IMG/VR virus record: IMGVR_UViG_2718218131_000010
Coordinates: 1 to 18,400 of that record
Source: a virus
Lineage: Duplodnaviria > Heunggongvirae > Uroviricota > Caudoviricetes
Reading direction: 5' to 3' (one strand)
DNA length: 18,400 nt
Part shown: positions 1,746-18,400 of the stretch, piece by piece
Layout: each line of letters starts with the position of its first letter
How positions within the stretch are numbered: position 1 is the first letter of the stretch
The notes under the pieces: model-generated
What the model saw: only the letters and a program-made list of their open reading frames with translations
Told to the model about the DNA's origin: nothing
Databases searched by the model: none
Translations under genes and position numbers: made by a program

Positions 1746-1763
1746 TTTTTGTGGAGGCAACCA

Positions 1764-2563: not shown

Positions 2564-2985
2564 GCAAGATTGACTATCAGGTACTGCGTGAGGCAGCAGT
2601 AGCAATTGAAACAGTAGCAACGCCTCAAAAATTGCTGGCATTTCGTATGAAAGTCACACCTCAGGTTGTGCTGGCACTACTGGATGAACGGGAAGCAGAC
2701 AAAAAGCGCATTGCAGAACTGGAAGCTCGGGAAATAAAACCAGCCAAAGGTGAAGTTCTTGTCGTTGTTTCTGGTTTTACTGGTTGCGGAAAAAGCGCCA
2801 TTGCCGGGGAAATAGAAATCGCGATGAAGGCTATTGGTGTACCGGTTCAGTGGACTAATGGCGATGCAGAAAAGCGCATGACTGGCGCTGACTGGCTGAC
2901 TGCGATTGAGATGTACAAACCAACTGTGCGCATCGTGGAAGTTAATGTGCCCCGCGCCGCAGGCATTCGCATCAAAGGAGAGTGA
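2560..2985 (+). CDS. hypothetical protein (141 aa) with Walker-A-like GFTGCGKS motif
   Basis: GTG start in the conserved GGAGGCAACCAGTGAG junction; motif VVVSGFTGCGKSA fits G-x4-GKS, but the protein is short for an NTPase and no Walker B was seen. Confidence 0.5.
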   Translation: MSKIDYQVLREAAVAIETVATPQKLLAFRMKVTPQVVLALLDEREADKKRIAELEAREIKPAKGEVLVVVSGFTGCGKSAIAGEIEIAMKAIGVPVQWTNGDAEKRMTGADWLTAIEMYKPTVRIVEVNVPRAAGIRIKGE

Positions 2986-2986
2986 T

Positions 2987-3502: not shown

Positions 3503-4485
3503 TCACTATTACCAAAGAGCGACTACTGACAATCAAGCAGTGGCGCGAAACATACGGACCTGGTAGCAACGTTGTACTGCCAGCAGAAGAAGCGGAAGAA
3601 CTGGCGCGGATTGCACTGGCATCACTGGAAGCAGATCCAGTTGCTTATATTTTCAAACATCCGGCCGGGAAATTATTCTGGGCTTTAACGGATGAAAGCA
3701 ATAAAGAGCAAGCTGACGTTATTCCTGTTTATGCTGCCGCGCCTGCGTCGGTTGTGCCGGATAATGCATCAGAGCCTCTTGCTTATGCTTACAAAGAGCT
3801 TACGCCTGAGATTATGCGCAACCATTTAGCTGTATTCGAGCGATATGGAATAGCCCCAAACGATAGCTCTACCACAATTCAGGCACTGCGAATCGCGCTG
3901 GATGGCATAGAGCGGAGCGGCGCCATGCTTCATGGTGCCGAACCTGTAAGCCAAACTTACAAGTTGCTAGTTAATACACCTTGCCAAGATGCGCCAGCCC
4001 ATATCTGGCTGCAAACAGCTGGAGTATGGCCAGAAGATGGCGAGTTAAGCGAATTAACGTGGTGCAGCCACAATCAGCACCATGATGACACGCTATATGT
4101 TCGAGCTGACCTTGTGAATGGCAACTATCCGGATATTCCGGATAGTTCGGTGCCAGGGCCAGGAAAGGGCGTCACCGGTGAACGTATCCGCATTAAACCG
4201 CATGTTTATCGCGAACTGGTTAACCGTCTCCACGATACAGCGATCAAGTGTGCGGGCACCCAGCAATTACGAGAAAGAATTAGCCGTGTTTTGGGCGACG
4301 TTATTACGCCAGATCATCATAAACAAGCCGAGAAAAGTGGCTTGGAAAGGTGTCACCTTGAGGCGGCATTAAACATTAAGCCGGGGCATACGCTTGGCAT
4401 TATTGATGCACTATTGGTTCATAAGATGGCCAGGGCTTTATTGCCGCTGGTGGATGCTGGCGATACAAGCGAGGGTGAAGTATGA
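3499..4485 (+). CDS. hypothetical protein (328 aa)
   Basis: ORF track; ATGA overlap with upstream stop; AAGAAGGAAACG RBS. Confidence 0.6.
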   Translation: MITITKERLLTIKQWRETYGPGSNVVLPAEEAEELARIALASLEADPVAYIFKHPAGKLFWALTDESNKEQADVIPVYAAAPASVVPDNASEPLAYAYKELTPEIMRNHLAVFERYGIAPNDSSTTIQALRIALDGIERSGAMLHGAEPVSQTYKLLVNTPCQDAPAHIWLQTAGVWPEDGELSELTWCSHNQHHDDTLYVRADLVNGNYPDIPDSSVPGPGKGVTGERIRIKPHVYRELVNRLHDTAIKCAGTQQLRERISRVLGDVITPDHHKQAEKSGLERCHLEAALNIKPGHTLGIIDALLVHKMARALLPLVDAGDTSEGEV

Positions 4486-4844
4486 GAGTTGCAGATCACA
4501 TCAAACACCTTGAAAGAATTATCGAAAACGGTGAACTCTTAAGAGATCAGATGAGACGCACGGCAGAAGTCAGAGAGGCGATAATCCGCAGTCAGGCTGG
4601 TAAATTAAAGCAATTGTCAGAGATTAACGCGCTATACAAGAACAGACGTAACCGGGCGGCGCTGCGGCTTCAGAAAGCACGTAATGAAATTAAATTGGTG
4701 GAGGCAAAACTGAAAAAACAGATTCAGCGTTACGATCAGCAAGATGCTTTTTATGCCGCCATCAAGGCGGCTGCTAATGAAATAGGCATCTGGAAGTTGC
4801 TGGTGGAGAAAGCAAAGACGAAGTTAAATGCCAACGAAAGCTGA
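4482..4844 (+). CDS. hypothetical coiled-coil protein (120 aa)
   Basis: ORF track; ATGA overlap with upstream gene; K/R/E-rich heptad-like composition. Confidence 0.55.
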   Translation: MRVADHIKHLERIIENGELLRDQMRRTAEVREAIIRSQAGKLKQLSEINALYKNRRNRAALRLQKARNEIKLVEAKLKKQIQRYDQQDAFYAAIKAAANEIGIWKLLVEKAKTKLNANES

Positions 4845-4918
4845 ACTACAGGTACCCACCAGCACATACAGAAAATGATTGTTTCCACATCAAGGAGATT
4901 TTAATGTTTCACTGAACA

Positions 4919-5056
4919 TTAAGTAAGCCAGTGCATAATTCCATTTTTTACTGACCTTAAAAGCAAAATCAAAACGATGATGAGGATGATCGCCAGAATC
5001 TGGCTAATAACAGGCGCATCTAAAAATGCACTCAGGAACTGAAAAAAAGCAGTCAT
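4919..5056 (-). CDS. candidate 45-aa hydrophobic single-TM peptide (MTAFFQFLSAFLDAPVISQILAIILIIVLILLLRSVKNGIMHWLT)
   Basis: Hand-translated minus-strand ORF below the 60-aa track cutoff; ATG at 5056-5054 with AGGA 9 nt upstream; one strongly hydrophobic helix followed by basic residues; stop at 4921-4919. Confidence 0.3.
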   Translation of the reverse strand: MTAFFQFLSAFLDAPVISQILAIILIIVLILLLRSVKNGIMHWLT

Positions 5057-5097
5057 TAAGGTGGTTCCTTGTCAAATGTAAAGGAGCACTTGCTCAC

Positions 5098-5126
5098 GTT
5101 GACGTAGAAACCCAACCCCTATATAG
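5098..5126 (+). promoter_or_regulatory. near-consensus sigma70 promoter (TTGACG-17 bp-TATAGT)
   Basis: -35 TTGACG 5098-5103, 17-bp spacer, -10 TATAGT 5121-5126; divergent from the small peptide gene; may drive hot via a long leader or a small RNA/ORF (5155-5352). Confidence 0.4.
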
Positions 5127-5505
5127 TTGGATTCGGTGAAAGAAAGTCGTTAACGTGAGCTTACGGCACATGTTTTCGGAACAACATCAGGGAACGGCTA
5201 ATTCCTTGATGCGGATGGGGTCTGTAATGCAGACCCTATCTATTAACGTCATGATTGCATCTCAAATTTTCTCCTTATCTTCATTAATCAAAATTCATTT
5301 CATTTGTGAAACATCACAATATTTAGAAAATGGCCCTCTTGCAAGTGCATAACTTTGTGGATAAATCAGGAAGAAAAAAGTTGATTCTGCGCACGGCAAG
5401 GCAGATAAGCTGTGCACAAAAATCAATGGGAGAAGAAAAAAAATTAAAAGTTACTTTGCTGGTTAAATAATAGTCGTTACTCAATTATTCTGGATGGGAT
5501 TTGAT

Positions 5506-5757
5506 ATGCACGATTGGAATATTGCAGCTAAAAGTCAGGAAGAACGGGATAAGGTTAACGTTGATCTGGCTGCCAGCGGTGTGGCGTACAAAGAGCGATT
5601 GAACATACCTGTCATAGCTGAACAGGTAGCCCGCGAGCAACCAGAGAATCTGCGCACCTATTTCATGGAACGGCTACGGCACTACCGGCAGTTAAGCCTC
5701 CAGTTGCCAAAAGGGAGCGATCCGGCATATCAGAAAGATGATGCCGTAAAGAAATAG
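5506..5757 (+). CDS. hot: Hot, homolog of DNA polymerase III theta subunit (HolE)
   Basis: [43 protein letters not shown] closely parallels E. coli HolE ([43 protein letters not shown]). Start at 5506 preferred (GGGA SD); in-frame alternative ATG at 5494. Confidence 0.85.
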
Positions 5758-5763
5758 CGGTAG

Positions 5764-6336
5764 TTAACCGTTTTGAACTTCTCGTATCCTGGCAATGACA
5801 GCTTCATGTTGGGCTTGGATAGCGGCTTTTTCGTTTTCAAGTCGGGCAATAGACATCTCTAATTCTTTGCTGTACCAGGCGAGTTGGGCCAGGTTCATCC
5901 GGTTGTGGTCGAGAGTTGGAGACACTTCGACGCGATCCCTTTCTTCCTGTTTTAATGAGAAGAGATTCATCTCATCCCTTGAGGAAAATTCAGCAACAAT
6001 TTCTTGTTGATGATCCGGTCGCTGCGGCATCCTCGCCAGTATAAATGGCGGTTCTTTTGAAAACATGAATGTCGGTTCAGAACGTGTTTTCACCCATCTA
6101 GCCTGCTGTCTTTCGGCAAGTTCACAGGCTTCATCATAGTTATTTGCCAAACCAAGCACGGATGGACGGTCCCACGCGCCACCATTCAGACAATAAACAA
6201 CAATTTTCCCGTCATGTTCTGTAACCCCATAGGGATGGTCCCACCAGGCGTCCAGCTGAGCTTTAGAGCGTTTCTCGTTAGGAGTGCAGTCAAAATTTTT
6301 GGGCAATACAGGATCGAGAGGAATGCGATTAGGCAT
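5764..6336 (-). CDS. hypothetical protein (190 aa), divergent from humD; position matches P1 lxr
   Basis: ORF track; lies between hot and humD as in the P1 gene order hot-lxr-humD (recalled, not verified by sequence). Confidence 0.55.
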   Translation of the reverse strand: MPNRIPLDPVLPKNFDCTPNEKRSKAQLDAWWDHPYGVTEHDGKIVVYCLNGGAWDRPSVLGLANNYDEACELAERQQARWVKTRSEPTFMFSKEPPFILARMPQRPDHQQEIVAEFSSRDEMNLFSLKQEERDRVEVSPTLDHNRMNLAQLAWYSKELEMSIARLENEKAAIQAQHEAVIARIREVQNG

Positions 6337-6471
6337 AGCTAATTCCTTATTAACTGATTGGCAACGAGGTTACGCTGATCCGTTGGTGATGAATAGTAGC
6401 AAAGAGCACAAAATCATCAGCGGTGGTTGATGTACGTAACGCGTTTGCACCAAAGGTGTCCCTTTAATGTA

Positions 6472-6491
6472 TACTGTATAAATGAACAGTA
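6472..6491. promoter_or_regulatory. LexA (SOS) box TACTGTATAAATGAACAGTA
   Basis: Matches the CTGT-N8-ACAG consensus exactly; 20 bp upstream of humD ATG; overlaps a TATAAA/TATACT -10 candidate with TTGCAC as a possible -35 at 6445-6450. Confidence 0.85.
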
Positions 6492-6510
6492 TTATTGAGG
6501 TGAAAACGCT

Positions 6511-6900
6511 ATGGGCTTCCCTTCTCCTGCGGCGGATTATGTTGAAAGCAGAATTTCTCTTGATCAGCAACTAATCAGGCATCCATCAGCGACCTACTTC
6601 ATGCGGGCGGCAGACAGCCATCACCGTGAGGGAATATTGCAGGGTGCTTTGCTGGTGGTTGATTCCTCGCTTACTCCGGTTGATGGTTCGCTGCTTGTCT
6701 GCGCTATGGAGGGTGAATATCGCATAAAGAGATACCGAAAGTATCCGCGCCAGCACCTGGAGGATTTAAGCACCGGGAAGAAAGAGGCGTTACCAGTAGA
6801 TGACGATGGTTACACGGGTAGTAATGCCGTGTTTGGTGTGATCACTCATGTCATCAATGATGCCCGGAGTGGGGAGTTTGATGATTGTCCGGTCATTTAA
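6511..6900 (+). CDS. humD: HumD, UmuD' homolog (translesion synthesis accessory)
   Basis: 129 aa; UmuD-like peptidase S24 C-terminal region (LLVCAMEGEYRIKRY...VFGVITHVIN); LexA box immediately upstream. Confidence 0.9.
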   Translation: MGFPSPAADYVESRISLDQQLIRHPSATYFMRAADSHHREGILQGALLVVDSSLTPVDGSLLVCAMEGEYRIKRYRKYPRQHLEDLSTGKKEALPVDDDGYTGSNAVFGVITHVINDARSGEFDDCPVI

Positions 6901-6972
6901 GCTGCAAAGTGCTGGTGCTTTATGCCTGTGAAGTTTATAATTGTGTACACATAACGAGTACACGAGGTGTTT

Positions 6973-7194
6973 ATGCAATCCATTAACTTCCGTACCGCGC
7001 GCGGCAACCTTTCTGAAGTGCTCAACAATGTTGAAGCCGGGGAAGAGGTTGAAATCACCCGCAGAGGCCGTGAGCCAGCAGTAATTGTCAGCAAGGCTAC
7101 TTTTGAAGCCTACAAAAAAGCGGCGCTGGATGCTGAATTTGCATCCCTGTTTGACACCCTGGACTCCACCAACAAGGAACTGGTTAACCGATAA
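6973..7194 (+). CDS. phd: Phd antitoxin (prevent host death)
   Basis: [49 protein letters not shown]... matches P1 Phd; TAATG overlap with doc. Confidence 0.95.
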
Positions 7195-7574
7195 TGAGGC
7201 ATATATCACCGGAAGAACTTATTGCGCTTCATGATGCGAATATAAACCGCTACGGCGGCTTGCCGGGAATGTCAGATCCGGGTAGGGCAGAGGCCATTAT
7301 CGGGAGAGTTCAGGCCAGAGTTGCCTACGAAGAGATCACCGACCTTTTCGAAGTCTCCGCCACCTACCTGGTGGCTACAGCGAGAGGGCATATATTCAAT
7401 GATGCCAATAAGCGTACCGCGCTAAACAGTGCGCTGTTATTTCTACGCCGTAACGGGGTGCAGGTATTTGATTCACCTGAACTGGCAGACCTTACTGTAG
7501 GCGCTGCGACTGGCGAGATATCTGTATCTTCTGTCGCCGACACGTTACGTAGATTGTATGGTTCTGCGGAGTAG
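7194..7574 (+). CDS. doc: Doc toxin (death on curing, Fic-fold kinase)
   Basis: 126 aa [22 protein letters not shown]...[11 protein letters not shown]... matches P1 Doc; 1-nt overlap with the phd stop. Confidence 0.95.
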
Positions 7575-7578
7575 ATTA

Positions 7579-7758
7579 ATGGCACGCAAATACAACAAAT
7601 TGTCCCGTGAAGCGTTAAAGATGCTTCTTGATGGCGTGAGTCGCCGCAAGGTAAAGCAATACCTGGTTGGTAAGCAAATTGGTGCCAGGACCGCTATTGC
7701 TGTGTTATGCCGTCAGGAAATGGTTGTGCTTAAACAGAGAATGCCGGGCAGCAGATAA
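7579..7758 (+). CDS. pdcA: small basic protein downstream of doc (pdcA by synteny)
   Basis: ATG 7579 with GGAG 7 nt upstream (track ORF begins at 7558 inside doc); symbol assigned from P1 gene order only. Confidence 0.5.
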   Translation: MARKYNKLSREALKMLLDGVSRRKVKQYLVGKQIGARTAIAVLCRQEMVVLKQRMPGSR

Positions 7759-7785
7759 AGCCCAATCAGTGATGAAAGGTGTGAT

Positions 7786-8829
7786 GTGAAAGCCGTAATT
7801 ACTCCCTTTGTACAAAAAGTGCTTGGCGTCGCCACATTCAAAGTGGATCAGGAAGTCAGAAAGCTGGTGGAGGCTGGCCGTAAATTTATTATGGAGCCGG
7901 TGCCGCGTGAGTTAATCGAGCACATGGACGACGGCCTCGTTGTTTCCGAGCAAACTATGGCAACAAATGAGGCGTTGCAGCCGTTTTTTAACAGCGATGA
8001 ACTGTTTCGCCGTATTGGTGGAATTGACTCGCTGGTGGCGTGGTTGCGCAGGAAAGAGGGGCAATGCCAGGCCGCAGATCGTAGTTGGTGTGACAACCAT
8101 ATTGTCCACGCTGAACGAGACAATAGCGCGGTGTTGTTGTGCTGGCATCACGATAACCATTACCGGATGCGTGGTTTTAATGAGCTGAAAGAAACGCTGC
8201 ATAATAATCGCGTTAACTGGATACTGGATGTCGCCCGTCAGGAAATGGGGCTTTCAGATGGCCATGATTTAAGTATTCAGGAACTGTGCTGGTGGGCTTT
8301 CATGCGCAACATGATGCACCTGATGCCGGAAGAAGTTTGCCGTATATCAATAAATAAGATGAAAGCCGCAACGCAGGATAGCGGACCTCTGAAAGAGGCG
8401 GATATTCGCCCGTATGACGATCGCGCTACAGCATATGTTCAGATGATGGAAGAACGCGCCGCGCCGATGCGTGCAAAAGTATGCCCTGTGGATGTAGACT
8501 CCGACCCTGGCATGGCGCATTTCAAAATACCAAAACTTCAATCGCTAAAATTGCCCGAGTACATGGACTTTGTGGCTTCCCGTCCATGCTGTGGCTGTGG
8601 AGCTGCGGGAGCTGGCGCTCACATTACGCCTTATATCGTTCGTCATAGTCGATTATGCGCGCATGACATTTATGCTATTCCTCTGTGCCAGTCATGCCAG
8701 CGTGATATTGAGCGTGACCTCGATAATTGGGAGAAGACGCACGGTAGGCTGGCGATGCATCAACGATTGTTCTTTGATTACGCGCTTGGAGTCGGCGCTA
8801 TCACAAGTCACTCGTCGAGCGTTAGATAA
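7786..8829 (+). CDS. pdcB: hypothetical protein 347 aa (pdcB by synteny); C-terminal Cys/His-rich region
   Basis: GTG start 7786 with AAAGG RBS; C-terminus contains [12 protein letters not shown]...C...H...C..C, a possible metal-binding/HNH-like region; symbol from P1 gene order. Confidence 0.6.
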
Positions 8830-8830
8830 A

Positions 8831-8847
8831 ATTGCTCTAATGTATTG
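8831..8847 (+). promoter_or_regulatory. C1 repressor operator-like site upstream of lpa (ATTGCTCTAATGTATTG)
   Basis: 13/17 match to the P1 C1 operator consensus ATTGCTCTAATAAATTT, including the invariant ATTGCTCTAAT core. Confidence 0.6.
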
Positions 8848-8917
8848 CTATTTCTTTAATCGAGGGTATTATATTCCACGTTGATTAGTTGACATGGGCT
8901 AATCAGTAGGTGACAGG

Positions 8918-9370
8918 ATGTTACTTAACTGGCAGGGACGCCACTTCATGGAAATAAATCACTCACGAATAACATCGTACGAGATTGCGGATTACATGAT
9001 CCGCACTAAATCTCTTCTATCAGCGAAAGAACTCGCAGCAATTCTTGAAAAGGAATACCCGCATCTGGATGTCGATAAGCGCGATGTTTATCTGCGCTTA
9101 AAGGCTATCGCTGTGTCTAAGTATTCGTCTGTTTTGATTGATGACAGTACACGCCCACGTAGATTTCAGATCCACTCTCTGAATCCTGAATTCTTTCGCC
9201 GCAGCCGCGCTCCGCGCCGGTTTGATGAAAAACTCCAGAACGAACTCTATATGACGCAGGACGAAAAGGAACGCCGGGAGCACCAGCCTTGGGTAATGGC
9301 GCGTCAACTTTTCAATAAGGTGGCCCGTCAGCACCGTCATTACGGTAATGCCACATCCGCACGTATCTGA
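8918..9370 (+). CDS. lpa: Lpa, late promoter activator
   Basis: 150-aa ORF directly preceded by a C1 operator and followed by pacA, as in P1; AGGTGA RBS before ATG 8918. Confidence 0.75.
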   Translation: MLLNWQGRHFMEINHSRITSYEIADYMIRTKSLLSAKELAAILEKEYPHLDVDKRDVYLRLKAIAVSKYSSVLIDDSTRPRRFQIHSLNPEFFRRSRAPRRFDEKLQNELYMTQDEKERREHQPWVMARQLFNKVARQHRHYGNATSARI

Positions 9371-9380
9371 TTGATTGCTT

Positions 9381-9399
9381 GCCCGTTCCGGGCCTTTTG
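9381..9399 (+). terminator. putative rho-independent terminator after lpa
   Basis: GCCCG-TTC-CGGGC stem-loop followed by CTTTTG. Confidence 0.4.
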
Positions 9400-9455
9400 A
9401 CATGTGACTTTCGTTACCCTCGCGTCAAAAAGAGTTTTTACGAAAGGAAGCATAA

Positions 9456-10649
9456 GTGACCTGGGACGATCACAAGAAGAATTTTGCTCGCCTGGCGCGA
9501 GATGGTGGTTACACCATCGCACAGTATGCCGCCGAGTTTAATCTTAACCCTAATACCGCACGTCGTTATCTCCGTGCCTTCAAAGAAGACACCAGGACTA
9601 CGGACAGCCGCAAGCCAAATAAGCCAGTCAGGAAGCCACTAAAAAGCATGATCATTGATCACTCTAATGATCAACATGCAGGTGATCACATTGCGGCTGA
9701 AATAGCGGAAAAACAAAGAGTTAATGCCGTTGTCAGTGCCGCAGTCGAGAATGTGAAGCGCCAAAATAAGCGCATAAATGATCGTTCAGATGATCATGAC
9801 GTGATCACCCGCGCCCACCGGACCTTACGTGATCGCCTGGAACGCGACACCCTGGATGATGATGGTGAACGCTTTGAATTCGAAGTTGGCGATTACCTGA
9901 TAGATAACGTTGAAGCGCGGAAGGCCGCGCGCGCTATGTTGCGTCGGTCCGGGGCCGATGTTCTGGAAACCACTCTTCTGGAAAAGTCTCTTTCTCATCT
10001 CCTTATGCTGGAGAATGCCAGGGATACGTGTATTCGCCTGGTGCAGGAAATGCGCGATCAGCAAAAAGACGATGATGAAGGTACTCCGCCTGAATACCGT
10101 ATCGCGAGCATGCTAAACAGCTGTTCCGCGCAGATAAGCAGCCTGATCAACACCATTTACAGCATCCGGAATAACTATCGAAAAGAAAGCCGGGAGGCGG
10201 AAAAGCACGCTTTGTCTATGGGGCAAGCTGGCATTGTTAAGCTGGCATACGAACGAAAGCGTGAAAATAACTGGTCAGTGCTGGAAGCAGCTGAATTCAT
10301 CGAGGCGCATGGCGGGAAAGTTCCGCCCCTGATGCTGGAGCAAATCAAAGCCGATCTGCGTGCTCCTAAGACCAATACCGATGATGAGGAAAGGCAGACA
10401 GCCGTCGGCGGCCCTTCTCTTGAAGATCTGGACAAAGTTGCGCGAGAACGGGCCGCCAACCGCCGCGCCGATGCCGCATTGTGGATTGAGCAGCGTAGGG
10501 AAGAAATCGCCGATATCGTTGATACAGGCGGTTATGGAGATGTTGATACTGAAGGTGTATCAAACGACCCATGGCTGGAACAAGACCTGGACGAAGACGA
10601 GGAGGAAGACGAAGAAGTTACCCGCAAGCTATACGGGGATGATGATTAA
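9456..10649 (+). CDS. pacA: PacA, terminase small/pac-recognition subunit
   Basis: 397 aa; contains the pac site internally; acidic C-terminal tail; GTG start with AAGGAAG RBS. Confidence 0.9.
9649..9807. other. pac packaging site: 4 + 3 TGATC(A/G) hexamers with Dam GATC cores
   Basis: TGATCA at 9649, 9656, 9668, 9683 and TGATCG/TGATCA at 9779, 9791, 9802 inside pacA; matches the known bipartite P1 pac architecture. Confidence 0.85.
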
Positions 10650-12133
10650 TGGCCAGAAGTTGCGTAACGGATCCACGTTGGCGCGAGCTGGTGGCGCTAT
10701 ATCGTTATGACTGGATTGCGGCCGCTGATGTTTTGTTTGGGAAGACACCAACCTGGCAGCAGGATGAGATCATTGAGTCCACGCAGCAGGACGGCAGTTG
10801 GACAAGTGTGACCTCCGGCCATGGTACTGGTAAGTCGGATATGACGAGTATCATTGCAATACTCTTCATCATGTTTTTCCCCGGCGCTCGCGTCATTCTG
10901 GTCGCTAACAAAAGACAGCAAGTCCTTGATGGTATTTTCAAATATATAAAGAGCAATTGGGCTACTGCTGTTAGCAGATTCCCGTGGTTGTCGAAGTATT
11001 TCATTCTTACAGAAACGTCTTTTTTTGAGGTGACTGGCAAGGGTGTTTGGACAATATTGATAAAGTCCTGTCGCCCCGGAAATGAGGAGGCGTTGGCTGG
11101 TGAACACGCCGATCATCTCTTGTATATCATCGACGAAGCGTCGGGTGTGAGTGATAAAGCATTCAGTGTGATAACAGGTGCGCTGACCGGTAAGGATAAC
11201 CGTATTCTGCTTCTTTCCCAGCCTACGCGACCTTCAGGCTATTTCTACGATTCACACCACAGACTAGCTATTCGCCCGGGAAATCCTGATGGATTGTTTA
11301 CTGCGATAATACTGAATAGTGAAGAATCTCCGCTTGTAGATGCAAAATTTATACGAGCAAAACTTGCGGAGTATGGCGGTCGTGATAACCCCATGTACAT
11401 GATCAAAGTACGTGGTGAATTTCCCAAATCTCAAGATGGCTTTCTTCTTGGTCGTGATGAGGTTGAGCGGGCGACGCGGCGAAAGGTCAAGATTGCCAAA
11501 GGATGGGGCTGGGTTGCATGTGTTGACGTTGCTGGTGGCACAGGACGAGATAAGTCCGTTATTAATATCATGATGGTGTCCGGCCAGCGAAATAAACGCC
11601 GTGTAATCAACTATCGTATGCTGGAATACACAGACGTTACAGAAACGCAGTTAGCCGCCAAGATTTTCGCAGAATGTAACCCAGAACGGTTCCCGAACAT
11701 AACCATAGCTATTGATGGCGATGGCTTGGGGAAATCGACGGCTGATCTGATGTACGAACGCTATGGTATTACCGTCCAGCGTATCCGCTGGGGTAAAAAG
11801 ATGCACAGCCGTGAAGATAAAAGCCTTTATTTCGATATGCGCGCTTTCGCGAATATTCAGGCGGCAGAAGCTGTAAAATCAGGGCGTATGCGGCTTGATA
11901 AGGGGGCTGCGACTATAGAGGAAGCATCAAAGATACCGGTCGGGATAAATTCCGCAGGTCAATGGAAGGTGATGTCAAAGGAAGATATGAAGAAAAAACT
12001 CAACCTGCACTCACCGGACCATTGGGATACATATTGTTTCGCTATGTTGGCGAACTATGTACCCCAAGATGAAGTGCTTAGCGTCGAAGACGAAGCGCAG
12101 GTTGATGAAGCTCTGGCATGGCTTAATGAGTAA
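10649..12133 (+). CDS. pacB: PacB, terminase large subunit
   Basis: 494 aa; start overlaps the pacA stop (TAATG); position and size as in P1. Confidence 0.9.
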
Positions 12134-12136
12134 AAA

Positions 12137-12153
12137 CTTGCTCTAATAAATTG
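12137..12153 (+). promoter_or_regulatory. C1 operator-like site (CTTGCTCTAATAAATTG)
   Basis: 15/17 match to the C1 operator consensus; sits 4 bp after the pacB stop at the head of the antirepressor module. Confidence 0.65.
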
Positions 12154-12154
12154 T

Positions 12155-12310
12155 GTTTTTTTGGCTGCCGATGTTACATTGAACCTGAACTCTTGCGCCT
12201 TGAGGCATTTTCGGTTTATGCTTATCAGGCACCTCATTAAAACGGGTGCCGGGATTGGAACCCCGGATAATGCAAAAGGCGACACAGACGCCAAAAGCGT
12301 CTTTTTTTGT
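12155..12310 (+). ncRNA. candidate C1-controlled small RNA or leader segment ending at an intrinsic terminator
   Basis: No ORF; contains GGCUGCC (12164-12170) and a hairpin CCGGG-AUUGGAAC-CCCGG (12249-12266); ends with GACGC-CAAAA-GCGTC followed by T7 (12287-12308). Confidence 0.3.
12287..12308 (+). terminator. rho-independent terminator (GACGCCAAAAGCGTC + TTTTTTT)
   Basis: 5-bp GC stem, 5-nt loop, 7 T run; flanked by GACACA / TGTGTC extending the stem. Confidence 0.6.
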
Positions 12311-12339
12311 GTCATGCCATCGCACAGCCATACGTAGCA

Positions 12340-12493
12340 CATAGCTCCGAGATCAATGGTAGTGCTGGCTGGGCTGCCGAAAGGCAGGCCGGTTCCCTTT
12401 TGCGCCGGTAGTTCCAACCCAGTCAGTGCTACCGCCATTGAGATTGGAACCTCACGCGGTAGCTCCTAAAGTTAGCAAAAGGAGGCTGCCATT
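12340..12493 (+). promoter_or_regulatory. structured leader upstream of the icd-like ORF with anti-SD and kissing-loop elements
   Basis: Local hairpin CUGCC-GAAA-GGCAG (12373-12387); hairpin CGGTAG...CTACCG with GUUCCAAC in its loop (12405-12435); second AUUGGAACC (12443-12451); GGCUGCC overlapping the SD GGAGG (12481-12490). Confidence 0.4.
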
Positions 12494-12715
12494 ATGGCTA
12501 CTATCCCTACCCCAACTCACCCTGAATTTATCTGGCGCTTTTACTCCTGCCAGAAACGTCACTATCACTTCGTTATCGCAACAACAGAAGATGAGGCCCG
12601 CTCTCAGCTTCCTGACGCCCCATGTATTTTCTCTGCCCGTTTTTCCACTGATTCACGCAATTCTCTCAGTTACTGGTGCCTCCCTGTTAACGCTTCTGCT
12701 CAGGAGGGACTATGA
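12494..12715 (+). CDS. small ORF translationally coupled to the antirepressor (icd-like position)
   Basis: 73 aa; GGAGG 8 nt upstream; stop TGA overlaps the ant ATG (ATGA), the same coupling architecture as icd-ant in P1 immI. Confidence 0.45.
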   Translation: MATIPTPTHPEFIWRFYSCQKRHYHFVIATTEDEARSQLPDAPCIFSARFSTDSRNSLSYWCLPVNASAQEGL

Positions 12716-13824
12716 GAACGTCATTAGTCACCCGTGAAGAGATGATCGAGGCAATTGAACGGCACACTGCCTGTATCAGTACCAGGGATATACCGGGCGT
12801 TATTGCCAACTACTTCATGATCACCAAACAACTTTACCGGAGAAAGGACAAGAACGCGGTTCACCGCATCCTGCTAACCGATATCCGTGAATACCTGCTC
12901 GAACAGGGTCATCTGAATTACGCAACCGTCGCAGCCGAAGCACGCAAGGAGGCACACAGAATGAAAGCAACTAACGTTAAATCAGAAAAAATTCATGCAC
13001 CTTCAGTTCAGGAATCGGAACTGGTGGTTGTTCAGAATCAGCCGGATGAAATTCCCGTTCTGGAATGGCAGGGAGTACGTGTCGTGACAACCGAAACTCT
13101 TGCTAGAGGGTATGGGGTCGATGAAGCCAATATTCGCAACAATTTGTCTCGCAACCTTGACCGCTTTGAAGAAGGTAAGCATTACTTTCTTCTAACTGGT
13201 TTAAAATTAAGAGAATTTAAGAACAGAGTAACCGGAAGTTACTCTGTTGGTAAGAACGCCAGAAGCCTTACACTCTGGACAGAGCGCGGCGCTGCACGCA
13301 TGTCTAAGATCGTGGACACAAATGAAGCATGGGCATTCTTTGAAAAACTGGAAGACAGCTACTTCCGGCAAAAAGAACAGCAACCGGTTGCAATCCCCCA
13401 GACGCTTCCAGAAGCTCTGCGCCTGGCTGCCGAACTGGCTGAACAAAAGCAGCTTCTGGAACAGAAAGCCCACCAGCTAAATCAGCAGCTGGTGGCCGCC
13501 GCTCCTAAAGTCGATTTTGCCGACCGGGTATCAGTAGCTAAAGGGATCCTGATTGGGAATTTTGCAAAGGTTGTTGGACTTAAGCAAAACGCGCTGTTTG
13601 CCTGGTTACGGGAGAACGGCATCCTGATAGCGTCCGGTGGACGTAAAAATGTGCCGTTCCAGCAGTACATCAATGCGGGGTATTTCACGGTGAAAGAAGT
13701 GGTGCTGGATGATGAAGATGGCTACCAGATACGGTTGACGCCTCAATTAACGGGTAAAGGCCAGCAGTGGTTGACGCGTAAACTGCTCGATGCTGGCTTG
13801 TTAAAACCGGTGGCGGCTGAATAA
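12712..13824 (+). CDS. phage antirepressor (Ant-like; ORF6N N-terminal and KilA-C/ANT C-terminal domains)
   Basis: 370 aa; VRVVTTETLARGYGVDEANIRNNLSRNLDRFEEGKHYF...LTLWTERGAARMSKIVDTNEAWAFFEKL (ORF6N-like) and FAKVVGLKQNALFAWLRENGIL...VPFQQYINAGYFTVKE (KilA-C/ANT-like). Confidence 0.75.
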   Translation: MRTSLVTREEMIEAIERHTACISTRDIPGVIANYFMITKQLYRRKDKNAVHRILLTDIREYLLEQGHLNYATVAAEARKEAHRMKATNVKSEKIHAPSVQESELVVVQNQPDEIPVLEWQGVRVVTTETLARGYGVDEANIRNNLSRNLDRFEEGKHYFLLTGLKLREFKNRVTGSYSVGKNARSLTLWTERGAARMSKIVDTNEAWAFFEKLEDSYFRQKEQQPVAIPQTLPEALRLAAELAEQKQLLEQKAHQLNQQLVAAAPKVDFADRVSVAKGILIGNFAKVVGLKQNALFAWLRENGILIASGGRKNVPFQQYINAGYFTVKEVVLDDEDGYQIRLTPQLTGKGQQWLTRKLLDAGLLKPVAAE

Positions 13825-13833
13825 TGGAAGAAT

Positions 13834-13862
13834 GCCCGGTTGATGCCGGGCATAATTTATTG
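13834..13862. terminator. convergent terminator hairpin between ant-like gene and c1
   Basis: GCCCGG-TTGATG-CCGGGC followed by ATAATTTATT; overlaps the c1 stop codon region. Confidence 0.5.
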
Positions 13863-14708
13863 CGCGCTTTCGGGGTTGTCGTTTACTGGCTGCCCCTTCT
13901 TGGTTTTACGGCTGCGCGTAACTGATGCGGCTGACTTAACCTTTTTCTCTTCGCGAGTGATGGCAATTTGTTTTTTTACATTTTCAATATCTGCCAGGCG
14001 ATATATTTTTGCTTGCGGCCAGCGGTCGCAGATGATCGGTTCTATGGAGTCATAAAGGCTAAATTTTGCTTTTTCGAATTCACCGTTGATGATAATTCCA
14101 TCACGGAGAGTTTCATCGCAGATAAACACGCCACACAGTGGCACATGGTAACTAACTGATTTACCATCATTGTAGTTAGGGCTACTGGAAATGTAGTGGA
14201 CGCGCAGCATTGTTTCGCTAAAGCCGTGTACGCGCATACGGAATTTTTCATCCTCCGGGTACTGCTTCATTAGCTCTTTTGTTGCTTCCAGGTTCTCTAT
14301 GTATTTCGCACTGTGCTCATTGATCCCCGCGCTTTTTTGGATGCGAATGTCCTTATCAATCAGATGAATAATGCGGCCAGCGGTCATGTTGACGCTGTTC
14401 ACAGCTTCTGTCTGATAAGTTGTAACCTTACGCACACCGCGAAGGATGTTAGGCACAGGATATAAAATAGTCTTTGGGATATTGAGATCTGGGTACTGTT
14501 CCAGTTCCCGCGCCATTAAAGTCCATTTATCAATTTCTGCCTGAATGCTGTCCGTTTCTTTGAACGGCAGAACGACAACCGGGCGTACAGGACGACCGTC
14601 GCTGGCGGCATCAACGTGTTGGGCGCGTGCAACAGCTTTTTTTAGAAAGAGATCCCTGAAGCTGACGAACTCCTGGTACAGTTGTTCGCCGTAGACATAA
14701 TTTATCAT
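13857..14708 (-). CDS. c1: C1 repressor of lysogeny
   Basis: 283 aa MINYVYGEQLYQEFVSFRDLFLKK... matches P1 C1 as recalled; multiple C1 operators in the vicinity. Confidence 0.95.
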   Translation of the reverse strand: MINYVYGEQLYQEFVSFRDLFLKKAVARAQHVDAASDGRPVRPVVVLPFKETDSIQAEIDKWTLMARELEQYPDLNIPKTILYPVPNILRGVRKVTTYQTEAVNSVNMTAGRIIHLIDKDIRIQKSAGINEHSAKYIENLEATKELMKQYPEDEKFRMRVHGFSETMLRVHYISSSPNYNDGKSVSYHVPLCGVFICDETLRDGIIINGEFEKAKFSLYDSIEPIICDRWPQAKIYRLADIENVKKQIAITREEKKVKSAASVTRSRKTKKGQPVNDNPESAQ

Positions 14709-14802
14709 TGATCCTCCTCCAGAATTGACATGGCCAACAACTCACAGCGGATAACACTGAGAGTTGTTGGGCACCATTATAGAAGGATCTAACGAAAATA
14801 AT

Positions 14803-14819
14803 AGATTTATTAGTGCATT
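14803..14819 (-). promoter_or_regulatory. C1 operator-like site between coi and c1
   Basis: Minus-strand AATGCACTAATAAATCT, 14/17 match to the consensus. Confidence 0.5.
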
Positions 14820-14821
14820 TA

Positions 14822-15028
14822 TTATGAGTCTGGCTGGTTAGTGGTCATGAGATATTCAATTGTGTCAGTGAGATCATCTAGGTCGTCGGGGGTGATACGG
14901 TACTCCTGATTGGATATCTTTGAGTAGTGTTCAGCAATGGCGCGAGCAGCGTCGGTTTCGGTGGGATCTACAGATAAAGCGTTAGAGCAATGTCTAACGT
15001 CGTCGATAGTTGGTGGAATGAAAGCCAT
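14822..15028 (-). CDS. coi: Coi, C1 inactivator
   Basis: 68-aa acidic ORF immediately upstream of c1 on the same strand, as in P1 immC. Confidence 0.8.
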   Translation of the reverse strand: MAFIPPTIDDVRHCSNALSVDPTETDAARAIAEHYSKISNQEYRITPDDLDDLTDTIEYLMTTNQPDS

Positions 15029-15250
15029 AATTATGCCTCACTGTATTTACAACACAGAGCCTGAAGCTCTGACCTACTGTTTCACCCATGATCCATGCTG
15101 GGGTTATCTAACAACATTGCGCTGTGTGTAAGATGAGCAATGCATAGCTGTAATGCCCTGTTTGCTCATTTCCTTCTGAGCCGCTCTACAACACTGAAGA
15201 CACATTAAATAGTGAATCCAAAGTCGTATTACGAAACGGCGGCAAAGCTA

Positions 15251-15267
15251 TAATTTATTAGAGCAAT
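15251..15267 (-). promoter_or_regulatory. C1 operator (Op99-type), minus orientation
   Basis: Reverse complement ATTGCTCTAATAAATTA, 16/17 match. Confidence 0.65.
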
Positions 15268-15333
15268 TGTCAAACAACTATGAAAAACAATCCAGTTTTT
15301 GGCTGGTGGAGTGGGATTTTACTCTCAAAATTT

Positions 15334-15350
15334 ATTGCTCTAATGATTCT
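15334..15350 (+). promoter_or_regulatory. C1 operator-like site (ATTGCTCTAATGATTCT)
   Basis: 14/17 match with intact ATTGCTCTAAT core; lies in the imcA/imcB control region between coi and loxP. Confidence 0.55.
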
Positions 15351-15393
15351 TGATTTTTGTGCGCAGCTGGACGTAAACTCCTCTTCGGACCTA

Positions 15394-15427
15394 ATAACTT
15401 CGTATAGCATACATTATACGAAGTTAT
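15394..15427. other. loxP site-specific recombination site
   Basis: Exact ATAACTTCGTATA-GCATACAT-TATACGAAGTTAT (13-bp inverted repeats and 8-bp spacer). Confidence 0.98.
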
Positions 15428-15446
15428 CTTAAGGGTTATTGAACAT

Positions 15447-15517
15447 GATCAATTTACCTGTAAATCCATACAGTTCAATACATTACAGGTCAAATAGTGA
15501 TCACTTGATCATTTGAT
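15447..15517. promoter_or_regulatory. Dam GATC cluster in the cre leader/promoter region
   Basis: GATC at 15447, 15499, 15507 and 15514 (TGATCA-type) between loxP and cre; cre promoters are known to be Dam-sensitive. Confidence 0.5.
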
Positions 15518-15615
15518 CAAGGTTGCGCTACGTAAAATCTGCGAAATGTTGGCAGTGTTAGTGCTCCAGATTTCGCGTAGCGCACTTAGCACCACCAATC
15601 AATCAGAGGTGAAAA

Positions 15616-15837
15616 ATGGGATATTCAGCTGCTAAAGTGTCCACTCATATTGAGCTTGAGAAAAACCGTGGTTACTGGCGGGCAAAAGGGTTTGATCGTG
15701 ATAGTTGTCAACTGTCATTATCGCGCGGTGAAGAGAAAATAGAACGCACGCGCGGTCGCTGGCGTTTCTATGACGAGAACCATAAACAGGTAAAGGCAGA
15801 GCCGATCCTGTACACTTTACTTAAAACCATTATCTGA
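15616..15837 (+). CDS. candidate small basic protein (73 aa) in the cre leader
   Basis: ATG 15616 with GAGGTG 5 nt upstream; stop 8 nt before the cre ATG; I do not recall an annotated gene here in P1, so this may be non-coding leader. Confidence 0.3.
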   Translation: MGYSAAKVSTHIELEKNRGYWRAKGFDRDSCQLSLSRGEEKIERTRGRWRFYDENHKQVKAEPILYTLLKTII

Positions 15838-15844
15838 GTGTTAA

Positions 15845-16876
15845 ATGTCCAATTTACTGACCGTACACCAAAATTTGCCTGCATTACCGGTCGATGCAAC
15901 GAGTGATGAGGTTCGCAAGAACCTGATGGACATGTTCAGGGATCGCCAGGCGTTTTCTGAGCATACCTGGAAAATGCTTCTGTCCGTTTGCCGGTCGTGG
16001 GCGGCATGGTGCAAGTTGAATAACCGGAAATGGTTTCCCGCAGAACCTGAAGATGTTCGCGATTATCTTCTATATCTTCAGGCGCGCGGTCTGGCAGTAA
16101 AAACTATCCAGCAACATTTGGGCCAGCTAAACATGCTTCATCGTCGGTCCGGGCTGCCACGACCAAGTGACAGCAATGCTGTTTCACTGGTCATGCGGCG
16201 GATCCGAAAAGAAAACGTTGATGCCGGTGAACGTGCAAAACAGGCACTGGCGTTCGAACGCACTGATTTCGACCAGGTTCGTTCACTCATAGAAAATAGC
16301 GATCGCTGCCAGGATATACGTAATCTGGCATTTCTGGGGATTGCTTATAACACCCTGTTACGTATAGCCGAAATTGCCAGGATCAGGGTCAAAGATATCT
16401 CACGTACTGACGGTGGGAGAATGTTAATCCATATTGGCAGAACGAAAACGCTGGTTAGCACCGCAGGTGTAGAGAAGGCACTTAGCCTGGGGGTAACTAA
16501 ACTGGTCGAGCGATGGATTTCTGTCTCTGGTGTAGCTGATGATCCGAATAACTACCTGTTTTGCCGCGTCAGAAAAAATGGTGTTGCCTCGCCATCATCC
16601 ACCAGCCAGCTATCAACTCGCGCCCTGGAAGGGATTTTTGAAGCAACTCACCGATTGATTTACGGAGCTAAGGATGACTCTGGCCAGAGGTACCTGGCCT
16701 GGTCTGGACACAGTGCCCGTGTCGGAGCCGCGCGAGATATGGCCCGCGCCGGAGTTTCAATACCGGAGATCATGCAAGCTGGTGGCTGGACCAACGTAAA
16801 TATTGTCATGAACTATATCCGTAACCTGGATAGTGAAACAGGGGCAATGGTGCGCCTGCTGGAAGATGGCGATTAG
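15845..16876 (+). CDS. cre: Cre tyrosine recombinase
   Basis: 343 aa MSNLLTVHQNLPALPVDATSDEVRKNLMDMFRDRQAFSEHTWKMLLSVCRSWAAWCKLNNRKWFPAEPEDVRDYLLYLQARGLAVKTIQQHL... matches Cre; begins 418 bp after loxP. Confidence 0.98.
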   Translation: MSNLLTVHQNLPALPVDATSDEVRKNLMDMFRDRQAFSEHTWKMLLSVCRSWAAWCKLNNRKWFPAEPEDVRDYLLYLQARGLAVKTIQQHLGQLNMLHRRSGLPRPSDSNAVSLVMRRIRKENVDAGERAKQALAFERTDFDQVRSLIENSDRCQDIRNLAFLGIAYNTLLRIAEIARIRVKDISRTDGGRMLIHIGRTKTLVSTAGVEKALSLGVTKLVERWISVSGVADDPNNYLFCRVRKNGVASPSSTSQLSTRALEGIFEATHRLIYGAKDDSGQRYLAWSGHSARVGAARDMARAGVSIPEIMQAGGWTNVNIVMNYIRNLDSETGAMVRLLEDGD

Positions 16877-16893
16877 CCATTAACGCGTAAATG

Positions 16894-16910
16894 ATTGCTC
16901 TAATTCTTTG
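16894..16910 (+). promoter_or_regulatory. C1 operator-like site upstream of cra (ATTGCTCTAATTCTTTG)
   Basis: 13/17 match with intact ATTGCTCTAAT core; position corresponds to P1 Op2. Confidence 0.55.
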
Positions 16911-16926
16911 ATATTTATGGCGACAT

Positions 16927-17214
16927 ATGAGAAAGAATTTCAACATCGACGGAAAATATGTAGTGCTGTCAGTGAGCACTAATATTCAGTCGCCAGCCGT
17001 CATTGTCACTGTAAAGCTGAGCGATAGAATGCCTGATATTGACTCAATATCCGTTGCGTTCCCTGTCAGAAGTATGCGTAGTGCTGAACATTTCGTGATG
17101 AATGCCACCGAGGAAGAAGGGGGCACCTCAGAAAACGGAATCTATGGTCACTCCCGTTTTTGCAACACCGATTTTGACGACAAGTTGGCTTGCTTGAATC
17201 TATCCGGCGTCTGA
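16927..17214 (+). CDS. cra: Cra (C1 repressor-controlled function), by position
   Basis: 95-aa ORF immediately downstream of cre and a C1 operator, as in P1; weak RBS, so the start is uncertain. Confidence 0.6.
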   Translation: MRKNFNIDGKYVVLSVSTNIQSPAVIVTVKLSDRMPDIDSISVAFPVRSMRSAEHFVMNATEEEGGTSENGIYGHSRFCNTDFDDKLACLNLSGV

Positions 17215-17395
17215 ATGGGATTTTATTCCCGCGCCTTGATGAGTTCCGCGCCTGATGAACCTCCAGAAAATATACGGCTTCAATGAGCCTTTCCGTTTTA
17301 CAGGTTCCTCAACAGGCCGGTGGGCCGTTAGTATCATCAATATCAGTATTCGCAAAACCAGATCAGTAATTCTTTAAACCGGTGTATTTCTGCCG
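17215..17395 (-). ncRNA. candidate noncoding 3' flank of the IS110-family element (possible bridge/guide RNA region)
   Basis: 180 bp with no ORF between cra and the transposase stop; contains tandem CCGCGCCT(T)GATGA repeats (17229-17258); which IS end carries the bridge RNA depends on subgroup, which I cannot determine. Confidence 0.25.
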
Positions 17396-18400
17396 TTATG
17401 CTACATAAGTTTGCTGTCGTGCCGTTAGGGCCCAGGCTATTCTGGCCAGCTTGTTTGCCAGAGCACAAGTGACGACAAAGTTGCTTTTCCGGCACAGTAA
17501 ATCCCTGACCCAATCGGCCAATTTGCCAGACTGGTGTTCCAGTTTTTGTATGAATACCCTGGCACACTGAACCAACAAAGTTCGGATCTTTTTATTACCT
17601 CGCTTACTAATTCCCAGCAATGTCGTCCTACCTCCCGTGCTGTACTGCCGAGGTACAAGCCCTGTTGCCGCCGCAAAGTCACGGCTGCTGGCGTACTGCT
17701 TCCCGTCGCCAATCTCAGTTGAAATAGTACTCGCTGTCAGTGTTCCGACGCAGGGAATGCTCAGCAAGCGCTGTCCAACCTCATCTTCGTCCAACTTTCG
17801 TTTCAACTGGGATTCCAGATCTTTAATCTGCTCAACAAGATAGTGATAATGCTGTTGTAATTTCAGCAATAACTGGCTGAGGTAAAGAGGCAAACTATTA
17901 TCCTCAAGAATGGTACTCAGTCGGCTAATAACGGCAGCTCCTCGGGGAACGCTAATGCCAAATTCCAGCAGAAAAGCATGCATTTGATTGGTTGTTTTCA
18001 CCTTATCCTGAACCAGGGATTCACGGACACGATGCAGAGCCCGCATTGCCTGCTGAGATTCCGTTCTGGGCTGCACAAAACGCATAGACGGACGCGATGC
18101 AGCTTCACAAATAGCTTCGGCGTCGACAAAGTCGTTTTTATTGCTTTTAACGAACGGGCGGACAAATTGTGGTGATATCAGCTTTGGGGAATGCCCCAAC
18201 TCTTCCAACTTGCGTGCCATAAAGTGAGAACCGCCACAGGCTTCCATTGCGATGGTTGTAGCGGGGCATGTCGCCAAAAATTCGATCAACTTTGGCCGGG
18301 TAAATTTTTTACGGTAAACAGCCTTCCCGCGACGATCCTGGCAATGAATATGGAAAGAGTTTTTACCCAGATCGATACCAATGAGCGCAATGTTTTCCAT
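17396..18400 (-). CDS. IS110-family (DEDD) transposase/recombinase, 334 aa; start codon at the window edge
   Basis: N-terminal MENIALIGIDLGKNSFH (RuvC-like fold with IGID motif) and a C-terminal region typical of the IS110 family; resembles IS4321/IS5075-type enzymes from memory. Confidence 0.9.
   Translation of the reverse strand: MENIALIGIDLGKNSFHIHCQDRRGKAVYRKKFTRPKLIEFLATCPATTIAMEACGGSHFMARKLEELGHSPKLISPQFVRPFVKSNKNDFVDAEAICEAASRPSMRFVQPRTESQQAMRALHRVRESLVQDKVKTTNQMHAFLLEFGISVPRGAAVISRLSTILEDNSLPLYLSQLLLKLQQHYHYLVEQIKDLESQLKRKLDEDEVGQRLLSIPCVGTLTASTISTEIGDGKQYASSRDFAAATGLVPRQYSTGGRTTLLGISKRGNKKIRTLLVQCARVFIQKLEHQSGKLADWVRDLLCRKSNFVVTCALANKLARIAWALTARQQTYVA

Follow-up and report, generated by a model that had tools for sequence, protein, structure and literature searches.

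The window, by which we mean the whole 18,400-nt stretch of DNA analysed, carries towards its right edge a P1-like backbone with cra, cre and a truncated c8, followed by a fragment of a Tn21-family end repeat and an insertion sequence (IS) on the minus strand (Table 1). The gene c8 of P1 serves the establishment of lysogeny. In P1 (AF234172) the order is cra (207–428), cre (436–1467), c8 (1518–1829) and ref, and the order cra-cre-c8 is common to P1 and the window. The cre-c8-ref region of P1 shares 97.5% nucleotide identity with the window as far as P1 nt 1710. When positions 16800–18400 were searched, P1 homology was limited to 16800–17119, with its edge at 17118/17119, that is at P1 nt 1709/1710 within c8. 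Compared with P1, the window lacks at this place everything of c8 past codon 64, where the gene is cut, as well as Oref and ref. The ORF at this edge had been taken for cra in an earlier note on this DNA. Its residues 1–64 match P1 C8, while the true cra lies upstream of cre; the ORF is a chimera that runs on into foreign DNA, and in RefSeq it is listed as a "hypothetical protein" (plasmid NZ_JBRYYF010000002). The same note spoke of a C1-controlled cra operon. This is unsupported: from cra through cre to c8 the P1 annotation shows no C1 operator (Oref, past the breakpoint, is the closest), and a scan of the window with the C1-operator consensus gave sites at or before 15350 only and none from cra to the IS.

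Table 1. Positions of the features in the window. A slash within a sequence marks the insertion point here and in the text, or, in the circular form, the joint between the IS ends.
Feature	Position	Strand	Basis
cra (true, P1-like backbone)	15616–15837	+	71 of 73 aa identical to P1 Cra; P1 annotation
cre, recombinase gene	15845–16876	+	343-aa ORF; aligns with P1 cre (P1 436–1467)
c8′, first 64 codons of P1 c8	16927–17118	+	62 of 65 aa identical to P1 C8
Chimeric 95-aa ORF, 64 c8 codons plus 31 read-through codons (IRmer, IS right end)	16927–17214	+	
IRmer (38-bp terminal inverted repeat), outer 22 bp, GGGGGCACCTCAGAAAACGGAA	17119–17140		IS-free sister plasmids
IS4321, 1260 of 1327 bp; 67 bp of the left end lie past the window	17141–18400	−	NZ_CP029118 copy
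Right terminal extension, 3 bp, AGA in IS orientation	17141–17143	−	
Right subterminal inverted repeat, GGGAGTGACCAT	17144–17155	−	Reverse complement of left-end ATGGTCACTCCC (full copies)
TTGCAA, −35 half of putative junction promoter	17160–17165	−	Read from the sequence
Non-coding region, 255 nt, downstream of tnp; predicted seekRNA/bridge RNA source	17141–17395	−	
Second RNA module, AACUCAUC ... hairpin GGGAAUAAAAUCCC ... GGAUAGAUU; candidate donor-end-binding part	17192–17249	−	
Segment GGAUAGAUU of the second module	17196–17205	−	
Segment AACUCAUC of the second module	17238–17245	−	
Imperfect direct repeat, RNA sense UCAUCAGGCGCGG-AAC-UCAUCAAGGCGCGG	17229–17258		
Motif CCGCGCCTTGATGA of the repeat	17229–17242		
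Motif CCGCGCCTGATGA of the repeat	17246–17258		
Predicted target-binding stem-loop, stem GCCUGUUGAGGAACCU / AGGUUCAUCAGGC, terminal hairpin GGCUCAUUGAAGCC	17250–17317	−	Fold predictions
Putative 3′ guide UAUUUUC	17266–17272	−	Same as top strand TATT/TTC, pairs with bottom strand
Putative 5′ guide AAAACGGAAA	17290–17299	−	Complementary to target top strand T/TTCCGTTTT, 10-nt match
tnp, 334-aa DEDD transposase WP_000427623.1	17396–18400	−	ORF, Pfam, NCBIfam

The empty site and the boundaries of the insertion

Positions 1–17140 of the window are 100.0% identical to the IncY P1-like plasmids CP148475 and CP148467 from Korean chicken E. coli, and the same holds for part of the PK8241 chromosome record. 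In these IS-free sister plasmids an intact 38-bp repeat, GGGGGCACCTCAGAAAACGGAAAATAAAGCACGCTAAG, stands at the same place and is followed by merRTPCADE. The empty-site records run ...GAGGAAGAA GGGGGCACCTCAGAAAACGGAA AATAAAGCACGCTAAG GCATAG..., and then into merR and merTPCADE; the window passes from base 22 of IRmer to TCTATGGTCACTCCC... The repeat is a Tn21-family end (GGGG...ACGCTAAG) beside merR, and its outer 22 bp in the window match the isogenic plasmids. These 22 bp are also what the window and the sister plasmids have in common with mercury transposons of the Tn21 family (Tn3 superfamily); compared with a full transposon of this family, the window contains only this outer part of IRmer. 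Past the right edge of the window one would expect the remaining 16 bp of the repeat and the mer genes, which were read in the sister plasmids. A complete 1327-bp copy of the IS in the IncC plasmid NZ_CP029118 splits the same repeat into 22 and 16 bp, with merR adjoining. Filled and empty sites thus add up, 22 + 16 = 38 bp, with one ambiguous T and no target-site duplication. As we read it from these comparisons, the structure is P1 c8′, then IRmer(1–22), then the IS (right end ... tnp ...), and it is the mercury transposon, not the IS, that has displaced the ref neighbourhood.

An IS110-family insertion made directly in P1 DNA near cra, with its end at about 17215 and with a bridge RNA and repeats held in 180 bp of ORF-free DNA, was the earlier note's reading, in which the IS itself replaced the ref neighbourhood. 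It was right about the family of the recombinase, about its subgroup and about the side on which the non-coding RNA would lie, and the distance was close, as 181 bases (17215–17395) separate the two stop codons. These bases do not separate a P1 gene from the IS but are wholly part of the IS themselves, as are a further 74 bases to their left (17141–17214). Moreover, the neighbouring ORF is c8′, the 22 bp of the Tn21-family end repeat lie between P1 DNA and the IS, so that the element sits in that repeat and not in P1 DNA immediately downstream of cra, and the empty-site comparison places the IS end at 17141, inside the chimeric ORF. We give this reading practically no credence.

From 17118/17119 onwards the sequence matches at 100% thousands of plasmid copies annotated as "IS110-like element IS4321 family". 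The 1260 bp present in the window are identical to the complete copy of NZ_CP029118, and at least 2679 plasmid records carry the element at ≥99% identity. The minus-strand gene at the right edge encodes, as had been proposed, a DEDD recombinase of the IS110 family: the product matches DEDD_Tnp_IS110 (PF01548, E 1.3e-20) and Transposase_20 (PF02371, E 4.4e-20), which correspond to an N-terminal DEDD (RuvC-like) and a C-terminal IS116/IS110/IS902 domain, and it scores 341 bits against a cut-off of 140 with the NCBIfam equivalog "IS110 family RNA-guided transposase" (NF033542). In IS orientation a full copy consists of TAATGAG and ATGGTCACTCCC, tnp (nt 68–1072), the 255-nt non-coding region, and GGGAGTGACCAT with AGA. 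Of the two ends, GGGAGTGACCAT with AGA (17141–17155) lies in the window, and TAATGAG with ATGGTCACTCCC was taken from identical full copies only. If the element is intact, as we assume, the left 67 bp and their flank lie outside the window, and on the plus strand these 67 bp are predicted to end in ...GGGAGTGACCATCTCATTA.

Such ends are of the IS1111 type, a family with subterminal repeats of 11–13 bp, asymmetric extensions (left 7 bp, right 3 bp) and a non-coding region downstream of the transposase gene (PMC11187229). The assignment to this subgroup made earlier was confirmed, with the 255-nt downstream region inside the window. There are 255 nt of non-coding DNA downstream of tnp vs. 67 nt upstream; the non-coding end is the one on the window side and not the other, and this flank gives no alignment to the P1 c8-ref region. 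The insertion orientation was the same in all copies inspected. According to the title of Partridge and Hall 2003, as cited in PMC11187229, IS4321 targets one position, in one orientation, in the 38-bp end repeats of the Tn21 family; the window copy and all others inspected agree with this.

The name of the element required some care: IS4321 and its sister isoform IS5075, each of 1327 bp, have their ends and target in common, and one is frequently taken for the other. A copy deposited as IS4321 in AB571791 is just 93.6% identical to the window, and this had led us to an assignment to IS5075 that was later dropped. The matter is decided by the type plasmid, IncP-beta plasmid R751, which has two copies of IS4321, IS4321L and IS4321R (Partridge and Hall 2003, J Bacteriol 185:6371, as cited in PMC11187229). 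IS4321R shows 99.5% nucleotide identity to the window copy (6 mismatches in 1260 bp, 2 amino acid differences) and IS4321L 96.8%. The R751 elements have the same 12-bp subterminal repeats, TAATGAG and AGA extensions and 1327-bp length (as judged from full copies), and they lie in Tn21-type end repeats at the same position and in the same orientation. Furthermore, NCBI names the exact protein of the window "IS4321 family" and the AB571791-type protein "IS5075 family". IS5075 resembles the window copy in length, ends, target and guide strands, yet differs from it at about 93.6% nucleotide identity and by 6 amino acids. That the element is IS5075 is thus very improbable, and we assign it to IS4321, of the IS1111 group of the IS110 family.

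The predicted target-reading stem-loop and its relatives

The 255-nt region downstream of tnp is predicted to fold, in RNA sense, into a target-binding stem-loop (17250–17317) in which an internal loop separates the terminal hairpin from the stem, the two sides of the loop being the putative guides. This stem-loop appears both in the single-sequence fold and in the consensus fold of relatives, where it has the compensatory pairs 47/116 and 54/109; a further such pair, 139/146, lies in the hairpin of the second module. The 3′ guide match extends over 7 nt across the insertion point and overlaps there with the 10-nt match, which falls on the other target strand. A search of 16800–18400 with the covariance models of Rfam 15, a step that had been suggested for this flank, returned no match at E ≤ 1; most likely a matching family is absent from Rfam.

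Similar arrangements are described for other elements. In ISEc11, ISKpn4 and ISPa11 the RNA is expressed, binds the transposase and is needed for transposition, and segments of such a seekRNA pair with the target's top strand and its bottom strand and overlap where the element inserts (PMC11187229). The seekRNAs of ISEc11, ISKpn4, ISPa11 and ISPst6 (Siddiquee et al. 2024, PMC11187229) have in common with IS4321 the place of the non-coding region, downstream of tnp, a pair of short segments, each matching one target strand, with an overlap at the insertion point, and the placement of the segment pairing with the top strand 5′ of the other. In these four elements the guides and the target differ from those of IS4321, whose RNA is a predicted one. 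Durrant et al. 2024 (PMC11208160) predicted the bridge RNA of the IS1111 group in the right end, and their supplementary tables place IS4321/IS5075 in this group. The bridge RNA of IS621, from the IS110 group (same paper), likewise works with a DEDD recombinase and reads both target strands by an internal loop; it differs from IS4321 in that it lies in the left (5′) end, has the guide order reversed and possesses a distinct donor-binding loop, where IS4321 offers a candidate module only.

Relatives were collected by a scan of one genome per species, which yielded 80 loci. Among these are relatives of about 70–77% protein identity from Xenorhabdus, Photorhabdus, Yersinia, Buttiauxella and a Klebsiella plasmid, and one, L055, of about 90%. 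Where ends could be identified, TAATGAG and AGA were kept, with the exception of the left end of L075. We aligned the cores of the non-coding region (221 of 255 nt) from 22 distinct relatives. The alignment is 85% identical overall and contains two hypervariable blocks, which coincide with the two strands of the loop. The changes follow the elements' own insertion sites. L067 has the 5′ guide AGCAUGAAAA and the 3′ guide ACACUUUUU at the site CCACACT/TTTTCATGCT; L076 has GAAACAAAA and GGGAGUUUU at GGGAGT/TTTGTTTC; L069 has CAUAAAA and GGUUUUA at AAGG/TTTTATG; and L055 has AUAUCG and AUAAUUU at ATAAT/TTCGATAT. For eight elements with different guides the mean fit was 14.5 nt on their own flanks vs. 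8.3 nt on the flanks of the other elements, and in a label permutation test none of 20000 permutations reached the observed value. The fit was weak in L060, L073 and L083. As the loop strands vary with the element's own insertion site and the stems carry compensatory changes, these results support an RNA-guided choice of target for this clade, IS4321 included.

The target might instead be read by the transposase protein, with the non-coding region acting as no more than a 3′ UTR or terminator and an end-recognition site. Such a role would fit with the motif AAAACGG found within the right end itself and with the empty Rfam search, the RNA of IS4321 being a predicted one. However, hypervariability in the 221-nt core is confined to the loop segments, the rest being conserved, and these segments track each element's own flanks; moreover, sister IS1111 elements need the RNA of this region and can be retargeted through it (PMC11187229). 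We see little chance for a target read by protein. The complementarity of guides and target, together with the covariation in relatives, shows that the flank 17141–17395 carries a putative target-reading guide RNA, which agrees with the placement of such an RNA in this flank by the earlier note.

The direct repeat and the second RNA module

The two motifs of the imperfect direct repeat, reported earlier as tandem repeats, are present in the flank at 17229–17258, and such a pair of motifs is rarer than expected by chance, since only 6 of 5000 sequences in a custom shuffle test reach the observed score. The pair nevertheless falls below the thresholds of two repeat finders, one of them Tandem Repeats Finder, and was reported by neither. 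In the predicted RNA the basal stem of the target loop has the first copy as its 3′ strand, and a further module (17192–17249) is opened by the second; both copies are conserved in relatives.

Could the repeat be a functional site of its own, either an iteron to which a protein binds or a duplication that arose by slippage in this copy alone, outside any RNA scaffold? Its statistical rarity would suit such a site, as would the position of the second copy in a module whose role is a candidate one. Against it, the repeat occurs in every IS4321/IS5075 copy and is kept in relatives at 70% identity, and its first copy is the 3′ strand of a stem that covaries. We hold a separate site to be improbable; as the folds and alignments suggest, the direct repeat is part of the conserved scaffold of the predicted guide RNA.

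The second module is near-invariant in the relatives, and its hairpin varies in a compensatory manner at 139/146 (CG in 11, AU in 7 and UA in 3). It is a candidate for the part that may read the donor ends. Matches between the module and the joined IS ends, ...CCATAGA/TAATGAG..., amount to 5–6 nt, which is about chance level: ACUCAU matches the left end, AUAGAU spans the joined ends and CUCAUU lies in the hairpin loop. The last of these was dropped as a donor guide, as it is not conserved in L060, L069 and L073. The element ends are invariant among relatives, and for this reason covariation is uninformative on a donor-binding module. We also observed that the strand with which the target loop ends recurs nearly unchanged as the first strand of the second module.

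Probable history of the locus and possible recombination in strain E3

Very probably, the locus is best explained by a nested insertion, P1 c8 :: Tn21-family IRmer :: IS4321, with an RNA-guided mechanism for the last step. In this history, a mercury-resistance transposon of the Tn21 family would first have entered c8 of a P1-like IncY phage-plasmid. Later, IS4321 would have inserted into IRmer between bases 22 and 23, in the canonical orientation and without target duplication. IS4321 is expected to leave a donor by excision as a circle, in which the joined ends would read ...CCATAGATAATGAGATGG... and could build a promoter, TTGCAA-N17-GA/TAAT, across the joint; a junction promoter of this kind was described for ISEc11 (PMC11187229). 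The DEDD transposase would then be guided by an RNA (seekRNA or bridge RNA) cut from the 3′ non-coding region. In the stem-loop, AAAACGGAAA would find its partner on the top strand, right of the cut, and UAUUUUC its partner on the bottom strand, spanning the cut. These two guide strands would account for the constant landing at ...TATT/TTCCGTTTT... in Tn21-type end repeats. By analogy with the sister elements ISEc11, ISKpn4, ISPa11 and IS621, we expect the RNA to be made by processing of the tnp transcript and the transposase to bind it, and we expect the junction promoter to be active.

All observations fit the published knowledge on the IS1111 family. IS4321 is here a textbook copy at a known target, in a known type of transposon and in a P1-like phage-plasmid, and as such is already known. 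The main value of the analysis lies in annotation: the gene disrupted beside cre is c8 and not cra, the 95-aa ORF is chimeric, and the boundaries to be annotated are 17118/17119 between phage-plasmid and acquired DNA and 17141 for the IS. The locus records two successive gains in a lineage of P1-like phage-plasmids from poultry E. coli, first of a mercury transposon and then of IS4321, which blocks the end of that transposon and offers homology for more rearrangements. With an isogenic empty site and relatives whose guide loops appear to be naturally reprogrammed, it also provides a clean natural example of what would be an RNA-guided insertion.

The whole c8::IRmer::IS junction was not found in PLSDB plasmids. 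Among complete RefSeq E. coli genomes it occurred in one record, a 271-kb plasmid of the poultry strain E3, which aligns to the window over 15156–18400 only, at 99.6%. There, the left flank of the IS is AATATCCCACGCTAAG, adjoining a gene annotated as glutathione synthase; this flank belongs to another Tn3-family end repeat than IRmer and makes up its inner part. A second IS4321 lies inverted 9 kb away. Taken together, the E3 arrangement points to recombination between IS copies. The IS4321 copy of the window may likewise have been a site of later recombination.

Two further readings, both of which we regard as rather doubtful, go beyond the nested insertion. The copy in the window may be a crossover that joined a P1-like phage-plasmid to a multiresistance region, and if so, IS4321 would serve as portable homology driving fusions between phage-plasmids and resistance plasmids. 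Similarly, if the second module does bind the donor, the direct repeat would be the trace of one RNA module duplicated into a target-reading and a donor-reading module.

Target specificity of IS4321 and a relative in Xenorhabdus

Inspection of the flanks at four loci (L006, L027, L047 and L041) revealed that some copies of the IS110-family insertion sequence IS4321 lie outside recognisable Tn21-type repeats. One such insertion site, on the chromosome of Klebsiella michiganensis, reads ...CATAATATT|TTCCGTTTTATTCC; another, from Serratia, reads ...GGGATATT|TTCCGTTTACTTGC. Nearly all copies retain TTCCGTTT as their right flank, and the left flank varies (TATT, TAAT, TTTT, AAAT, TGTT, TACT); from this, the specificity of IS4321 seems to be dominated by the 10-nt 5′ guide, one of the two loop strands of its guide RNA. 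A 1351-bp relative with approximately 71% protein identity was found as numerous copies in Xenorhabdus ehlersii and X. khoisanae (L076-L082). Its recurring insertion site, ...CAGGCTACGGGAGT|TTTNTTTCGCC..., is probably part of a repetitive extragenic element, and its guide loops, GAAACAAAA and GGGAGUUUU, fit this site.

Phage-plasmid backbone, C1-operator-like sites and the E3 plasmid

Positions 1-17140 of the window are 100.0% identical to CP148475 and CP148467, two IncY P1-like plasmids of Korean chicken E. coli that do not carry the IS. The same 100.0% identity was observed for positions 4905574-4922713 of CP080139, an entry whose label gives it as the chromosome of PK8241, a strain from chicken; this stretch could represent a phage-plasmid integrated in the chromosome or an assembly join. 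Scanning of the window with the P1 C1-operator consensus ATTGCTCTAATAAATTT gave six matches at a tolerance of 3 mismatches or fewer, vs. 0.07 expected by chance. All six are located upstream of cra, and no match to the consensus at this threshold was seen near the IS. A half-site, ATTGCTCTAAT, was also found.

The plasmid of E. coli E3 (NZ_JBRYYF010000002.1) carries two mutually inverted IS4321 copies, at 18642-19968 and 28738-30064, with mismatched flanks: the outer part of IRmer (the end repeat of a Tn21-family mercury transposon) and AATATCCCACGCTAAG from another Tn3-family repeat for copy 1, the standard inner part and GGGATCGCCTCAGAAAACGGAA for copy 2. Such mismatch suggests recombination between the IS copies, resulting in inversion or fusion. 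The reductase operon of E3 is not present in the window.

C1-operator-like sites of the window and the additional operon of the E3 plasmid
Feature	Location	Details
C1-operator-like match	window 15251-15267	consensus scan
C1-operator-like match	window 15334-15350	consensus scan
C1-operator-like match	window 14803-14819	consensus scan
C1-operator-like match	window 12137-12153	consensus scan
C1-operator-like match	window 8831-8847	consensus scan
C1-operator half-site	window 16895-16905	between cre and c8; 4 mismatches across full 17 nt
DMSO/selenate-reductase-family operon	E3 plasmid 9035-16651	IS1 and ISKpn26 on its flanks; between c1 and cra of P1-like backbone

Copies in doubtful or mislabelled records

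IS4321 or its sister isoform IS5075 was also detected, at 98-99% protein identity, in assemblies named Kitasatospora, Brachybacterium, Streptomyces and Streptacidiphilus. The contigs concerned are shorter than 2 kb (L036, L038, L041, L057) or 6187 bp long (L043), and these occurrences look like assembly contamination, not true hosts. The element annotated as IS4321 in a Salmonella genomic island (AB571791.1, 10588-11904; L086) probably bears the label of the wrong isoform, as its protein is 'IS5075 family' in NCBI naming and it shares only approximately 93% identity with the IS4321 copies of plasmid R751. This record, although a bacterial genomic island, is filed in a 'phages' collection.
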